Assembly: GCF_004010195.1 (NCBI RefSeq)
Contig: NC_057711.1
Location: 53,557,222 to 53,621,221 of the forward strand
Length of the DNA stretch: 64,000 nt
Direction: 5' to 3'
DNA from: Chiloscyllium plagiosum
Lineage: Eukaryota
Of this stretch, positions 1-60,229 are shown one piece after another (positions within the stretch are counted from its first letter, which is position 1; each line of letters opens with the position of its first letter). The translations under genes were made by a program, and so were the position numbers. The notes under the pieces were generated by a model. The model ran no database searches. It was not told the origin of the DNA and saw only the letters and a program-made list of their open reading frames with translations.

Positions 1-1215
1 TCATACTGAAATATCAGAACTATATGATTAATGTTTTCTTTCTCTTGTTATTTCTTATCTCCCCCTCATAAGGCTTTTACATCATCAATCCAAGATCATT
101 TCTTGCTATTATACACCTTGCACCTTGCACCACCAAAGCAGTTCCCACCACCCTGACCTTCCTGACTGTTATTTCAAAAGGTCATATACCAAGTTCCCAG
201 TTTTAATCTCTTTTTAACTGGACCTCCATAATGGCTGTAAGATCATACCCATTTATCTCCATACCAATAACTCACTTTTTTAATGAATGCTACATGTATT
301 TAAGTATTTTGTGTTTTTTGTTAATTTTGTGTTTTTACAATTTTGCTCTCCCTTTGACCCTGTTTGCATCTTTAAAAATACTGGCACACTCTATCCCTTC
401 CTGTACCACTCTGCATTTTATTATTAAATTAGTTGAATGCCACCATATCATTTTGCTTTGTAAGCGTTTGTATCACCCTTCCCAAAGTCTTCCTCCTTCT
501 TGGAAAAATATCAGCGTCATTGGGTCAAAATCCTGAAATTCTTTTCCTAATAGCATTGTGGGTCCATTAACACCAAATGGACAGCAGCAGATTAAGAAGG
601 CAGCTTCTCAAAGGCAATTAGGAAAAGGCAATGAATCCAGTCAATGAAGCTCACTTTCTCAGAATGAATTTTTTTAAATGTTGTTCGATCTCCTAGCCCT
701 AGGGACACCCTGACATGAAACATTTTGATCATTTGTCGCAGGTCCCTTCTCATTTTTCATCTATTTGTAATTGAGGGAAATTAGCAGAGACAAAAAAACT
801 GCAGATACTGGAATCCAAAGTAGACAAACATGAGGTTGGAAGCACTCAGTAAGCAGCCAGCGTCAGAAGGTAGAAAAGTCAATGTTTCAGGTTATTAATC
901 CCTTTTGGGATTACTTCTAGAGTTGTTAGATTAAAAAGTAGTGAAGATGTTCTAAACCTGTATCAGTTGGTTTCTCCACATATGCAATATCGCAAGCAGT
1001 TCTATTTATTATACAATAACAAGGAACTGAAGAGAATGAAGGAGATTTACAAGGATGATAGCAGTAATGTGTAGGTATACAAATGGAATAGTTAACAGGC
1101 TGGACATGTTTGCTCAGGAAAAAATGTTATAGTGTGATTTAATACATATAAGATAAAATTATGAATTATCTTTCTGGTTGGTGACAAAAAGGATGATTTC
1201 TCTCCTGGGGAAGAG

Positions 1216-1443
1216 TTGATAAAGAGTGGAGCTGGAAAAAGCATAGCAGGTTAAGCAACATCAGAGGAGAAGGGGGGTCAACGTTTCAGATCGGAACCTT
1301 TTATCAGGATCTGACGACATTTTCTGACCTGAAACATTGACTCCCCTTGTCTACTGATGATGCTTGACCTGCTGTGCTTTTTCCAGCGCCACTTTTTACC
1401 CACTCTTATCCTCTAGCTTCTGCAGTTCCCACTATCTCCAAGA
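1216..1443. mobile_element. Older Penelope-like fold-back insertion with two decayed hammerhead cores
   Basis: Imperfect ~75-bp inverted arms (1222-1296 / 1322-1396); decayed CTGAYRA...GAAAC motifs on opposite strands; flanked by TCCTGGGGAAGAG (1203-1215) / TCCTGAGGAAGAG (1444-1456). Confidence 0.7.
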
Positions 1444-1456
1444 TCCTGAGGAAGAG

Positions 1457-1569
1457 GAGAAAGTGAGGTCTGCAGATGCTGGAGATCAGAGCTGAAAATG
1501 TGTTGCTGGATTCCTGAAGAAGGGCTTATGCCCGAAACGTCGATTCTCCTGTTCCCTGGATGCTGCCTG
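1457..1569 (+). mobile_element. 113-bp Penelope-like mini-insertion with hammerhead core
   Basis: Flanked by perfect 13-bp direct repeat TCCTGAGGAAGAG (1444-1456, 1570-1582); contains CTGAAGA-a-GGGC-ttat-GCCC-GAAA-cGTC at 1514-1541. Confidence 0.8.
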
Positions 1570-2219
1570 TCCTGAGGAAGAGCCCAACTAGAGGCCATAG
1601 AGGCTACCAATATAAAATCCAATGGGTAATTCATAAGAAATGTTTTCATCCACAGATTGGTGAGAATGTGAATTCAATAGTATAGAGAGTGGCCAGAAGG
1701 AATAGTCAAGATCTATTTAAGGGAAAAGTAGACAAGTGTATGGAAGAGAAGGGAATAGATATTTGCAACAGTGGATTTAATGGAAGATGGAATAAGGCAC
1801 AGAACATTAAGACCATCTTCCAAAAGTGTTCATTCTACTTCTGAAATATTTACATGAAAATAACCATTTCAGAAAATGACATCTCTTTGAGTGTTGGTTG
1901 TTTGCAAATTACTTAAGATTTTATTGCAAGATCTCTGCACAAGCTGTCTTTCAAAGTAGTTAGCATATTGGCTTCCAATTAATACAATGTTTACATCAGT
2001 TCCTCTGCTTTTAATTTCACGTTTTCCGAGAACAGAAAGATACTCAAATATTCAAAACACCTTCTACTCATCAGGCCAATATTCAAGAATGGTAATGTGA
2101 TGGGAACAGCAAAAAAAAAATCAGCATCCACTTTTCCAACCAATCAGCAGATGTTTCTCATCCAATATAAAAATGCTGTTCTCTTTTACATTGATATTTC
2201 TGAGAGTATGCTTGAGAGT

Positions 2220-2515: not shown

Positions 2516-4720
2516 GTGCAAAATGAAAAGGTTTGATAAAATTGTTCACATTGTTGAGTACATTAAATGTAAACTCAGGCAGATCCAAGGAAGGGCTCAA
2601 GCAGCTGAAGAAACAGTATTGTGTATATTGGGCTCTAAGCTTGATATATAGAAAGTCATAAATACATATACAGCATGTGTTTCCTATTGCTGGTTCTAAA
2701 TTTTAAATTTTAAATGCTCTGCGATTGATGAAATTGGTGCCACACTAGTTTATGGATTTTATCATCACTGGATGACAGGAACATGGTTCAAAAAGGATGG
2801 TAGTTGCTTTTAAAACTACAAATAGCTTTTGTTTCAGAAATATGGGATTCATTCATACAGACTCCTTTGTTAATCTCTATGTGCCACATTGAGAGTTTTT
2901 GGGGAGATCAAATCTAAACAACGTACTGCATTACTTACCTGTATCTTGCCATTCGATCAGTAACCAAATATTATAGATGACAGTAGGATTATAAATCTCA
3001 ACTAACACAATGCTGGTGCTCAAAGGAATTCGTCTGCAATATTAATGCCAGATTTTCAATTAATAGTTGCAAAGGAACCTATATTATGACTACAATGAGT
3101 TCTGTCTTCTGATACACCATATGAAACTAATTATAAAGAAAAAATGGTTCTTGATATTCACCAAGGTGAATCTAATGGGTGTAGCTCTACATAATTCTTA
3201 TGGTACCAGAACTCAATGCTTAGATTGAGTGGAAAATGAAAAATAGAAACATAGGAAACCAAATAACTTCTTCAATTAAATCCTATTAAAGTTTTCTGCA
3301 GTCGGCAAAATGTTTAACTTCTGCTCTGATGTTTGAAGATTACAAAACAGCTTTACACAGTTTGAAAAACAGCTTTTTGAAATTGCTAAGGTTTTTCCTG
3401 TACACAAAAAGTAGGTCAGTTTAAATCAGCCAATTACCACATCATCAGACTACTCTTGATCATCAGTAATGTGATGGAAGGGATCATCAACAATGTTGTC
3501 AAGCAGTGCTTAGCAATACTCTGCTCACTCACAATCAGTTTGGGTTCTGCCAGGGTCACTGAGATCCTGATCTCATTACTTAGATTAAATGTGGTGAAAA
3601 GAACAGGACTCCAGCGATGGGGTGAGAGTGACTGCCTTTGACATCAAAGCTGAAAATGTGTTGCTGGAAAAGCGCAGCAGGTCAGGCAGCATCCAAGGAG
3701 CAGGACCTGCATGCTGTTGTTTTCATTTATCAATATTAACTTATTTGCTAGAAATTAGGTCAGAACTGTTAGATTGTAGTTTATCTAACAAATTTACATG
3801 CATATTATTATCTCATTAAAATAAATGACAATGTACAGTTTAAAATAATACAGGTCTTGTACTGGTCAATTTATTTTTTGCTTTTAAAAATTACTGCAGT
3901 GTTTGTAAATTAAAAGATACGACTATTAATGAAAATGCAGTAATGGAAAATTCTGTCTGCATTCAGTAAATTGCAAATGCATACTTCATCATGTGCACTA
4001 CAAGGATTAGTCACAGAAAAATACCATAAACGTAATTTATGGCATACCCCTAAGTGTTAGCCAAAGTGTGGTCCCAAATAATTATATAACAATTATCCCT
4101 GTGAGTTTTAGAGAGGTACAATATATTAAGTAGGCAGAAGCTGTCATCATAAAATTAACAACCTTCTGTAGCTTCCTTTTATTTGTGTTAAATGTTTTAT
4201 ATTTCATAGTATAATTGGTTTAAAATCAATTTCATTGATTTAACACATTCAGCTCAGGCCACAAGCAGAGCTAACTATACATAAAATAGCATTCAGACTT
4301 CTTTGAAATAAAAGCACTTTTAGTTTCATAACGGCTACTTCTTGCTATCATAGAGCCAGTAAGATCCAGGAGATAAAACAAAACTATAAAATGTTATCTT
4401 TATTGTATGCAAAGCTCCAGTTCAGAATAATTAACTTAGAAAATAGCAGAAGTAAGAACATGATGAAACAAGAAACATAATGATATCTGTTTTTATGTAA
4501 TAATTAAAAATCAATTGTATTTTTGAGTTATTCATTATTTTAAATATTTAATATTATCGTGGTATAAATATACATAATTTACAAAGAGACATGCAAACTT
4601 ACAAAGCATTTCGTGAACCTGTAAACATGCTAAAGTAATTTAAAATTTTGGATTGGTATATGAAAATACAACAATAGATTTATAGAATAATTTTTCAAAT
4701 CCTTTATAAAGATGACTCAC

Positions 4721-11182: not shown

Positions 11183-11323
11183 AGAGAAAGTGAGGACGGT
11201 AGATGCTGGAGATCAGAGTCCTCTACAGACTCATTCCTGATGAAGGGCTTGTGCCCGAAACATCGATTCTCCTACTCCTCAGGTGCTGCCTGCCCTGCTG
11301 TGCTTTTCCAGCACCATACTCCC
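11183..11323 (+). mobile_element. 141-bp Penelope-like mini-insertion with hammerhead core
   Basis: Perfect 16-bp direct repeat GACCACAATCTCACAG (11167-11182, 11324-11339); core CTGATGA-a-GGGC-ttgt-GCCC-GAAA-cATC at 11237-11264; shares its first ~37 nt with the 1457 element. Confidence 0.8.
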
Positions 11324-30405: not shown

Positions 30406-31959
30406 TAAGAAATATGAAAAGGATGCAAAAGAAGAAGTGAAATATAACGTTGGCTAAGATTTGCAGCTGATGATAAATGAAGAGTGTTGAAGAATAAAGG
30501 GTGCAGGTACTGTTGCCAAAATTTGCTATCCGATTTAATGAAACTAGTGTGTGCTGGTAGCCACGAGGTAATTAACCTTAAGTAAGTAACAAAGACCATT
30601 ACCATGTTATGTTTAACAGACACAGTACACACTGTAGAAACTCAGCAGGTCTGGCAGCATCAGTAGATAGAGAAATGGAAAATGTTGACTCTGATATGAC
30701 GACTTCAGAAGATTTTGAGAGTCAGATGGTGAATTTTACATTCCACAACTGCAAACCTGCAAAAGGAAATTATAACAAAGGAGGAAGAGAAAAAAAAAGG
30801 AGCAAATGGAGGGAGATGTGCACCCTGGGAGATTAACGCAACAATCAATGAACAACATAATTTTCAAATTTGGGCCTAATGCAAACCTAACATAAATAAA
30901 CCTATGTATCTCAAAGCAACATGCTGTGCATTCAACAACCTCAGCCTAAATTGTTTACTTAATCTGGCCCTTTTCAGCTATGTACACTAAAGATGACAAT
31001 GCTTATTAACTTACTTACAGTGTGAAACGCTTCAAGTGCCTTTCCCTTTGCTTTCCAATGGATAGGCACTAAAATGTACCCTGTCTAATTCCTAAGCTAG
31101 CATTATTATCTGATTATTTTCAAGCCCCATCTTAGCTCTGTTGAGAGAGGAGTTACAGTTTATGGAACTAGATTGGCATTCAGCAATAAAATGAAAGCCA
31201 TATACTTTGGATGCTTAACTCACCATCACTTTAAGGACAACTAGGGATAGGCAATAAATGGAACTTGGGTGGTATTCAATGTATTGACATTTGAATTAAA
31301 AGGCAATGCAATTCCCCAAAGTGCTATCTGCAGATATGTTAAACATGTGAACTGAAGCAGATTTAAAAAACCATCCATTCACATCTGGAACCTGGTCTCA
31401 AATCAGCCTAGACTAGACTAATGGGATAACTGTCTCTAGTCTCTTGACTGCGAAGATCAGCCTGAAAAATATCACCCCAGTTTATACGACATGTAGACCT
31501 ACTGCTCAGAACTTACTTAATTCAGTAATTGTTACATTTTCACAAACAAAAAACATTGTTCTGTTGGAAATGAAAACACAAGTTTGTAACTGTGAGTAGT
31601 GGCAAAGAATTTTCATATCAGAAATATTACACTAATCGGACTTTCACTCTGCAGTTAAACATGAGATTAAACGAGCTGCAAAATATCTGTGGGATTGACA
31701 TTTGTGATAATGGATATACAAGATCAGAAATGGATATGAATGCCAATCTTTAAAATTAGTCTCAAATTCTAAATTTAGATGTTCTCTTTAACAGTTGTTT
31801 TAAAAATTGAATAAAAACACTTTGAGATGATAATGTGCTTTTATATAGGAAATGTTAACAATTGAAATATACAGAAATCACCACAAATTAATTTTTACAT
31901 TTACACTGTATTCACTTGATTGGAACTTCTTGCAATTTTTGAATTTTAATAAGCTCCTT

Positions 31960-46931: not shown

Positions 46932-48744
46932 TCAATGCAAATTAAGATATCATTGGTCAAAAGAAGAATTATTGGATTTAAAACATTAACACTGTTTCCT
47001 CAGCTACAGCACTTTGTTTTTAGTTCAGATCGCCAACATCTGCAGTGTTTATTTCTAATTATGATATTGGTGGAACTGGTCAGATCATAATTTTTAGGAC
47101 CTCAACAGTAAATATGCACAAATGGACCAGCTTCCGCTGTAATAAATAACCACCATGATCTGAGGAGTTCTTAGTCTGAAAATGGTAATAGGAAACAAAG
47201 TATATCCCAGCTGGTGGTTGCTCAGACAAGTTAGATCCCGAAAGGAAACCTGGCTTGATAATTTGTGTGTTTAATTTTTCCTATTTTTGAGAAGAGGTTA
47301 GTTACTGAAACATATTCACACAAGGCAGATGCGCTTTAACATGTTTGTTTGTCTCCTATTAAGAAATAAAACAAACTATAAATGACAGAATGATTGTAAC
47401 ATGAACAGCAGAAAAAAGTTTCAGCCTGTCTTCCAACATTATCCTTTTACAGCTACTCGGATCCAGAGAAATTTCATTTGCATCGTAACTCTTAAGATTT
47501 TACTGAACTGATTTCTCCTAGTTTCTCTTCTTTGGCCTGTACAGACAACTTTTGGATTTGTTTGAATCTACTGGTACGGCCTGTATGTTTTCAGTTCTAA
47601 CAACATGAATATCTTATCCAAACTCTCCTAGCTTGGAACCTCCACAAAACTAAAACACTTAAGCTATGGTGACTGGTTTTCCCTGCACTAAAACTTGAAT
47701 TGCCTTCGAGGAATTTTTCTCCTTTCTGTACTGAACTCCTGGAGAACTTGAACCTTCTGTTCTAAAGTCAAAATAAACTACTAATTTTATGGTACACTCA
47801 ATTGCATAAACATTCCATTCCTTAACACACATTCTTCAAGGAACGTGACTGCAACCACACACTGTTCCAAAAAAAAAACATTTTTACCAGTTACCTTCAC
47901 AGAACTGAACCAGATCAATTTGCCTTTATTTTACATCCAGACTCCAAAGTATAATCCTTATTACATATTTTTCATCATAATTATGTAGAACAATACCATT
48001 ATATCCTTTTTCCTTCTTGAGCAATGTAAAGCCAAATAGGCATCAAAAGTCCATAATGACAAATTAATAATGTAAACTGACAAAATATTACAAAGCATAT
48101 GATTTACACTAAAGCTTACTTTGCTTGTAAATACAATTTTAAAATTTCCCAAAATATTTCCCAAAATATTTCAGTTTAAGAAGATAATCAGTGAATGTTG
48201 AAAACAAATATCAGAGTATAACACAAGGCTGCAACAAACATGGAAGTATTTGGATGGCAAGAGAGCACAAGTGCCATCTGAATATGTAAGGTGAATATAC
48301 TTCTAGACATATTCCCAGATACCTTTTCTAACAAAGAACTGCAGATGCTGGAGATTTGACACAAGCAGAAACAGAAGAAACACAAGTCTCCTTAAATGTG
48401 TGAACAGACTAAGATACAAAGGACAGACCCCGAGAGGTTCACTGAAAAGTCAGTGTAGGCAGCCATAGATTCGTTGATCTGTTTACAGTCTAAATCAGTA
48501 CTAACCAGACCCATGATTCTCCAAATAAAGACACATAAAACATTTTACTCTGATATAAAATATTGTTTCAGTTTCCAATATGCTCAGTACATGCATTTGG
48601 GCACTTTGTATTAATGCCTTCCTACCTCAGTTGCCCAATGAGATGTTAATGGGCCTTTTCCTTTAGCTACTTCAGTCTTGCAATTTACCATTCACAAAAT
48701 GATTTCTTAATTTCAAATATTGTGCAAGCTGCATATTTTTGTTA

Positions 48745-54245: not shown

Positions 54246-56049
54246 TATGCCTCTTCAACCTCCCTTAAATATCCAATACAGATTTTAAAGGATAAACATT
54301 ATATTAAAGATGACCTTTTCTCCCTACACCTTAAGTGGACGTAGTTTGAAAGTTCATGCACCTCTATACTTCATTGAAATCATATTGAAAAGTCACTCAT
54401 GAGTTGGCACAAAAGCTAGCATCATAATGTTCTACTCAATAATATTATAAAATTTATAAAAATGACCACTTGGCAAGGCAGGAATCTGGCTGCTGGCTCA
54501 GTTAGGACCTATTGAGTATTTAAAATTTTAGATTTCCAGCATCTGCAGTATTTGGCTTTTGTAATTATATTTAATTCAGTCCCAGTTCTCTTCCAGGAAT
54601 TTGCTGAAATTTGTATTTGTCTTTTTTGCCTTCTACAGTATACTATTATTGCTTCTTTTAGCAATCTTTATTTCTGATATACACTCCATGAATTCCAACT
54701 GAAATTTCTTCTGCTGTGTTTCAGATTCAATAATGATTATAGATATCCATAGTTTTTTGTTGAGTCACTGCTCTCACTGTATTCCAAATGTCATACACTG
54801 CCACATTCACCCTCTCACTTCAACTATCAAAAAACTGTCCTGATCCACAGTTTCATTTCATTCGTCATCTTATAATGCTTTTGAGAAAAAAAGCTTTCCT
54901 TTAGGTGTCAGGGATTGTAGGCTTCAATAACTCTAAGTTACTAATGCCCCCACACAGATCTCTTTCCTTTTCTCTTTCCTCATATCGCTTACCTTCTTCC
55001 AATGTCAGCCTTCAGCAAAGGCCTTAGCTTCATTTCCTACTTCGATTAATTGCAGAATTAGGCATAAGACAGTTTTTCTTTTGTGCATTTGCCTTCACGT
55101 TCACTTTTTTGGCTAACAGCATTCCTACACACAGTCGGTCTTTTCTTTCATCTTTAAAAAGTTCCATTCTATCCGGATGCCTCCTTCAGGTCACATAGCC
55201 TCTCACTGAATCCCTAGAATCACAGAGTGCAGATAGAGGCAATTCAGCCCATACAGACTGCACCAACCCTCTGAAGAGCATTCCACACTATCCAGGTCTT
55301 TTTTATTGATAACCATTAAGTGTGACATCAAGTGTCTCATTTTTGGTGCTCTGATCACACATTTCAACTTCTCTAATTTTATGAAATAGGAACAGGAGTA
55401 GGCTGCTGGACCCTTCCAGCCCGTTCCACCATTCAATAGGATCATGGCTGGTCTGACATTCGTCACAACCACTTTCCTGTCTTTTAATTTGCCGCTCTCT
55501 TCTGTCAGATCTAGCTTTAACGTCTTTAAATCTGAGAAGCTCTTTTGGTGGTGAATTAAACTCTACCCCTCATCTTCCGCCTCGGAACACTTCAACTCCA
55601 GGGCATCAATGTGGACTTCAACATTTTCTTTGCTCCTCGGATGCTGCCTGAACTGCTGTGCTCTTCCAGCATCACTAATCCAGAATCTGGTTTCCAGCAT
55701 CTGCAATCATTGTTTTTACCTAATCTCTACCCTAGTCAAGCATCAACTGTCCAATACCACTTTCCAGCTCTCCCAAACAATGGCCACATCACCGAAAGTC
55801 AAGCCTTCAACTGCCAAGTTGTTACTAATCTCAGTTAAAATCTCTGAAGTCCTGCCAGGAAATGCCTCCAACTTGTTTCCAATACTTTAATGCCAATATC
55901 AGTACCATTTCCAGCTCTCAATACAAACTGGGAAATTTTGCAAACTGCACCTCCCTTTTTGTTTCCCTTCCATTATCGCCATTTCTGGGATAAGCTACTG
56001 ACCAATAATTATTTTACACTTATTGATTCCCTGAGTTTCTAGACTATGC

Positions 56050-59970: not shown

Positions 59971-60229
59971 AGATGTTAATGATGAGGCTTTTACCTGTGT
60001 TATCTCTGTAGATGCTGCCTGACCTGCTTAGTGTTGTCAATATCTTCTATTTTATGATATATGACTTTGAAACTGTGGTATATTTTCTGCTGCTCTGACA
60101 CTCATTGTTTGGAGTTGCACATGGGGTCCATGTGGAATCCTTATCACAGCACACTCAGAAGGATTTGACTGAATTGAATTTTCCTCCTGGAAATTTCACT
60201 ATGCCTGGAACAATCCAAAAGTCTCCCTA

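Follow-up and report, generated by a model that had tools for sequence, protein, structure and literature searches.

Two stumps of Penelope-like elements of different age share a 13-bp target in Chiloscyllium plagiosum, probably by chance

How do two mobile inserts come to be framed by three copies of one and the same short target sequence? This question is raised by a locus within a window of 64,000 nucleotides from the shark Chiloscyllium plagiosum (NC_057711.1, forward strand, positions 53,557,222 to 53,621,221; all coordinates given here refer to this window), where three 13-mers separate two inserts, A and B (Table 1). An earlier note had described this arrangement correctly as to the presence and position of the three 13-mers and had read it as the work of two distinct families of ribozyme-bearing mini-elements, which cut the same site twice with the same stagger and might even cooperate as a dimeric hammerhead.

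Table 1. Features of the double-insertion locus (PLE, Penelope-like element).
Feature	Position	Strand	Remarks
Left half of decayed dispersed repeat, the pre-existing target	1006-1202	+	Colinear with right flank in relatives, clearest in L088
First target copy	1203-1215	+	TCCTGGGGAAGAG; base 6 is G, ancestral; A's inverted end shares the terminal AGAG
Insert A, old PLE 3' stump, 228 bp	1216-1443	+	Inverted arm (to 1307) and sense arm ending in tail CACTATCTCC on the right
Decayed hammerhead core, A's inverted arm	1280-1307	-	CTGATAA
Decayed hammerhead core, A's sense arm	1311-1338	+	Stem II broken, GTC changed to ATT; predicted to be paired inside the A hairpin
Second target copy	1444-1456	+	TCCTGAGGAAGAG; base 6 is A, derived; B's tail shares the terminal GAG
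Insert B, young PLE 3' stump, 113 bp	1457-1569	-	Tail on the left
Insert B, tail part	1457-1510		Element's tail read antisense
Insert B, sense arm	1510-1569		From hammerhead onwards
Intact minimal hammerhead core of B	1514-1541	+	CTGAAGA, extra A, 4-bp stem II, GAAAC-GTC, no helix III loop
Third target copy	1570-1582	+	TCCTGAGGAAGAG; identical to second copy
Right half of decayed repeat	1583-1790	+	19 genome matches, 18 besides the window, 70-84%

The expectation that removal of both inserts restores a continuous old CR1 tail holds for the continuity, as the two flank halves meet with an offset of 0 in three of the 14 related repeat copies examined (L086, L088 and L090), convincingly so in L088, the left-flank score of which (92) lies far above the maximum of 33 reached by shuffled controls; the left-flank scores of L086 and L090 are not above these controls. 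Using a LINE reverse transcriptase frame from L155 in tblastn, relatives of the flanks were matched weakly (E 0.003-2.1) and the window's own flanks not at all; the flanking repeat likely represents the 3' terminus of a CR1-type LINE. Like the first copy in the window, L086, L088 and L090 have a G at base 6 of the 13-mer. At the right edge of the 13-mer, up to 3-4 nt can be assigned either to the target or to an insert, since (A)GAG is found here both at the inverted end of A and in the tail of B. Further downstream, positions 2219-2510 presumably represent a tRNA-derived SINE-like repeat.

The inserts do not belong to two distinct mini-element families. A and B are truncated, folded-back 3' ends of subfamilies of a Penelope-like element (PLE) of probable Neptune type, one of them old and the other young. 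When the flanks of stumps were inspected, one end proved constant and the other variable, the former being the tail of a longer element. In locus L161, a 365-aa frame with YIDD that matches Pfam RVT_1 (E 4.6e-8) lies upstream of a B-type tail, and the longer copy L155 runs back into an endonuclease-like C-terminus with the motifs IIYCIRC...GLLY and RLLAERFREH, spread across frame breaks. We read these motifs as a putative GIY-YIG endonuclease; Pfam did not report GIY-YIG in two frame-broken fragments from L155. The same copy contains a zinc-finger-like C-NPR..C-KT-C, split over two frames, which is to be compared with CX2-5CxxC between reverse transcriptase and endonuclease in Neptune, and this putative finger points to the Neptune clade. 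The stumps show the anatomy of an endonuclease-positive PLE, i.e., an inverted truncated copy with a 30-40-bp tail on one arm, and a minimal hammerhead resides in the terminal repeat. Exact tail 13-mers occur 112,706 times in the genome compared to 272 times for a control.

For endonuclease-positive PLEs (Penelope/Poseidon, Neptune), the available text of PMC8557442 and PMC3846280 describes insertion units with 5' truncation, an inverted pLTR, a one-sided 30-40-bp tail and a hammerhead in the pLTR. The stumps studied here resemble these units in their head-to-head arms, the tail on one arm, the hammerhead in the repeat and the flanking duplication, and longer copies carry reverse transcriptase and endonuclease-like sequence upstream; they differ in being only 110-270 bp long and extremely numerous, and their duplications of 13-17 nt contrast with 8-10 nt reported in the same sources for the PLE units of Adineta. 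In most stumps of the series L094-L153 the second arm extends only to TTTTCAG(CT), a point some 35 nt before the end of the tail, in agreement with the two reverse-transcription start sites described for PLEs. For Poseidon of Anolis carolinensis, the accessible part of PMC11167929 reports that in vitro both strands are cut and extended, that reverse transcription starts from two sites a tail-length apart and that hammerhead cleavage is dispensable for insertion. Cutting and extension of two strands and the two start sites fit the stump anatomy seen here, whereas Poseidon belongs to another clade and prefers ATT/AT-rich cuts, a preference without counterpart in the shark stumps. Further remnants of the same PLE end lie in the window at 3640-3705, 11184-11316, 55631-55705, 30632-30661, 48339-48355 and 60011-60028. 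Elsewhere in the genome, insertions at L092 (G000:C4:74963780) and L074 duplicated at least 60 bases of flank, far above the usual duplication length, and at L008 and L020 stumps lie within what we take to be coding regions of other Penelope-like copies.

Insert A is the 228-bp fold-back with two decayed hammerhead cores that had been described (cores at +1311 and -1307). Its arms, each of 97 nt (1211-1307 and 1311-1407), are 80% complementary, and its second arm terminates where most others do, some 35 nt inside the tail. Its closest other genome copy is 82% identical (best of 40 scored among 2,890 candidates), and it shares 74% identity with the young PLE end. In two of 20 loci (L202 and L207), A-type cores come after the same PLE endonuclease-like C-terminus as that in L155. 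Insert B, the 113-bp unit with its CTGAAGA / stem II / GAAAC-GTC core at 1514-1541, is likewise as had been reported. It is 99% identical to other stumps (best of 40 scored among 577 candidates), and both of its arms are 98% identical to the end of the longer copy L157. Its second arm ends earlier than usual, at CCTG, which matches the target. As the tail of A lies on the right and that of B on the left, the two inserts are arranged tail to tail.

The ends of B-like copies range from 112 to 161 nt from the tail and show no constant length, which rules out B as a mini-element or retrozyme unit of fixed length. The very same inner joint as in B is present in 14 of 30 loci, which comprise five sequence types, suggesting repeated independent formation. 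Retrozymes, as characterized in the available text of PMC4918200 and PMC6155905, share with the stumps that they are short non-coding elements with hammerheads; there, however, the hammerheads sit in direct repeats and the elements spread as units via circular RNA, whereas A and B arose through truncation and have ends that vary.

The order of events can be read from related species. In organism B, the sequence proceeds from window positions 1364-1443 directly to 1570 and onwards on single contigs from two studies (X5 record 22 and X6 record 30), and therefore the single-insert allele, which the earlier note had proposed to look for in related sharks, does exist: it consists of A and one 13-mer, without B. 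In organism C, the start of A is present and the right-hand contig starts at 1570; these data, which comprise no piece spanning the joint, fit an absence of B there. Insert A is thus older than the split from organisms B and C. In three other samples of the window's species, contigs extend 19-25 letters into B, which is under our 31-letter bridging rule, and B looks fixed in this species. Base 6 is a derived A in the second and in the third 13-mer and the ancestral G in the first. Taken together with the allele of organism B, this means that A inserted first, that the right-hand 13-mer then mutated and that B finally duplicated it, so that two successive insertions, as originally proposed, are confirmed. 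An allele lacking both inserts was not seen among the matches listed from seven runs, whose contigs drop rare variants, such that absence is not implied. Organisms B and C both carry 14 extra bases after 1614 (1614-1615) and about 13 extra bases after 908-910 that are missing in the window's species.

The same evidence speaks against a composite insertion. That 1216-1569 constitutes one unit, or the product of one event, has virtually no probability in our view: single complex events with internal spacers do exist in the PLE family (L183, L184 and L188), but the allele of organism B, with A and without B, refutes a one-unit reading, and identities to the best relatives differ greatly (82% for A compared to 99% for B). 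The composite was not found as a dispersed unit at other loci. A script found a tail upstream in none of 24 B-like loci, none was present in the flanks of all 29 shown, and a partner tail was detected by script at neither the 24 B-like nor the 24 A-like loci. Among the three exact-motif pairs of A-type and B-type tails, the middle 13-mer occurs only in the window.

Given two insertions, does the shared target reflect a choice? Target duplications were recognized in 55 copies, namely at 31 of 62 successive ends on contig C1 and at 24 of 28 B-like ends; 51 of the 55 duplications measure 13-17 nt, the mode being 15, and therefore the width of the cut is a constant of the family. The phrase "same stagger twice" remains correct insofar as both duplications measure 13 nt, and it loses its meaning as a sign of targeting, since the width is family-specific. 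A length of 13 nt lies at the short end of the range (9 of 55), yet it is common to A and B. Duplications of A-type copies span about 12-17 nt where visible, a range obtained by reading flanks by eye; automatic calling at 20 further A-type loci yielded one call at a score of at least 10, because the tails are too decayed. The 55 duplications do not reveal a target consensus beyond overlaps with the element ends: bases are skewed only at the borders, where the last base is G in 34 and the first base C in 25 of the 55, and both positions overlap element ends. The suggested target-site preference thus finds no base consensus behind it. The idea that the 13-mer resembles a preferred cut site, similar to the hammerhead core TCCTGAAGAAGGG, and was chosen independently by two families, can draw on a match to B's own core (1512-1524) at 11 of 13 bases and is nonetheless very improbable in view of duplications that lack a consensus and are skewed only where they overlap the element's ends.

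Re-targeting beside a prior copy should manifest itself as an excess of adjacent double insertions, and adjacent pairs turned out to be no more common than expected by chance. With a uniform expectation, 17 tail-to-tail pairs were observed at distances of 8-30 nt compared to 20.5 expected, and 28 at 31-60 nt compared to 26.8. A-type and B-type tails form three pairs, including the one in the window (expected 1.8), and arm-to-tail pairs number 18 compared to 36, an expectation that is an overestimate because many motif copies can pair in one order only. All pair counts are based on exact motifs and hence concern mostly young copies, old-young pairs being covered by the three matches only. In simulations, 6.8% of adjacent pairs have both borders matching to within 1 nt, corresponding to 2.5 expected among the 37 other pairs, a denominator that includes pairs with assembly gaps; two clear three-copy sites were found. 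At these two, L176 (G000:C4:13173402) and L177 (G000:C5:16768919), three copies of a 14-16-nt duplication frame stumps of different subfamilies. The clear cases do not include L189, where the subfamily is the same and one border deviates by 3, L191, a tandem copy of a single element, L185, which is displaced by 5-6 nt, or L062/L074, which lie within the extension of the element itself. Our chance model predicts 0.8 exact three-copy sites per genome, 5.6 at +/-1 nt and 12 at +/-2 nt, and 1.5e-5 to 2.2e-4 per 64-kb window. An exact coincidence of both borders is consequently rare in any one window and needs some luck, and is expected per genome. A younger stump within about 45 nt in two of 24 A-like loci (L045 and L058) counts against a chance reading. 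On balance, the old A and the young B, both PLE stumps, probably came to share the same 13 bases by chance.

We also considered that the endonuclease recognizes an existing PLE tail or fold-back hairpin and cuts just beyond it, so that B would have been drawn to A. This weak self-targeting is rather unlikely. It is suggested by L062 (G000:C2:122224392) and L074 (G000:C24:20953806), where copies of one young subfamily share a single insertion point, 12 nt inside the post-tail extension of the element, a sequence with 121 sites in the genome and about 0.002 insertions expected per base position; the position of the second nick coincides with, or is close to, the end of an older tail at both loci and in the window alike. 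The accessible part of PMC11167929 reports in vitro cleavage of the ORF-pLTR junction of a PLE by its own protein; the endonuclease of D. virilis, as cited there, needed the tail region. On the other hand, tail-to-tail spacers of 13-17 nt are found in five of 17 cases (about 4.5 expected), the target in the window is a host repeat and not the element's extension, and the lead from L062 and L074 was found after the fact with n=2. Among 100 extension sites read, none except L062 and L074 has an insertion at that base, and in two others (L239 and L170) a tail follows after a further 12-15 nt. That shark Neptune-type elements in general home weakly to their own ends, with one nick at a tail already present and another about 14 nt past it, across subfamilies and ages, we regard as unlikely.

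A further alternative assigns a role to the ribozymes, with adjacent cores of A and B forming a dimeric hammerhead able to cut a transcript of the host. The core of B is intact and of the minimal type; cleavage is predicted after position 1541, and stem II is predicted to form with a probability of 0.98-1.0, stem I of the monomer being weak (at most 0.17). At the gathering threshold, Rfam gave no match in the window. The CTGATAA core of A's inverted arm has lost the conserved G8, and it lies antisense; the plus-strand core of A lacks stem II and GTC, and helix III of the dimer would contain a C-A mismatch. Dimer cleavage has been described for type I motifs (available text of PMC6155905). The bases of A's plus-strand core are, however, paired within its own hairpin with a probability of about 1, and pairs of a hetero-dimer were computed at less than 1e-42. 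As the cores of A are defective and, according to the prediction, held within a hairpin, the dimer that had been envisaged appears unlikely, and cleavage of a host transcript by it is scarcely credible.

For the preferred reading, a chance double insertion, a simple course of events can be proposed from the stump anatomy together with the available text of PMC11167929. The PLE endonuclease would make a staggered cut about 15 nt wide, and both DNA ends would prime reverse transcription on the end of the element's RNA, one at the tail and one further in. Two short cDNAs may then be joined head to head, and fill-in would create the target duplication. If B landed just a few bases away from the tail of A, coinciding borders could result from the constant width of the cut together with the overlaps of GAG and CCTG with the ends of the element. 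The hammerheads would be passive cargo.

Double insertions at one target with a duplication between the elements have been noted for R1, the P element and hobo and attributed to insertion-site preference (available text of PMC5932611). Three target copies framing two elements are common to these cases and ours; here, in contrast, subfamilies of different age lie tail to tail without a genome-wide excess, and neither a target consensus nor an excess of same-site dimers was found. A literature search of openly accessible articles gave no match for target sites of shark Neptune-type PLEs. The locus is most likely a chance double insertion of a known kind of element, i.e., ordinary repeat debris. 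As a dated two-step insertion with a recovered single-insert allele, it is usable as a lineage marker. The statistics of the family, with duplications of 13-17 nt, no consensus and two priming points separated by one tail length, agree with in vitro work on PLE insertion. If self-targeting were true, B in the window and the insertions at L062 and L074 would be its products and it could seed stacked PLE arrays; self-targeting to tails, if real, would link the in vitro cutting of the element's own junction to landing sites in genomes.
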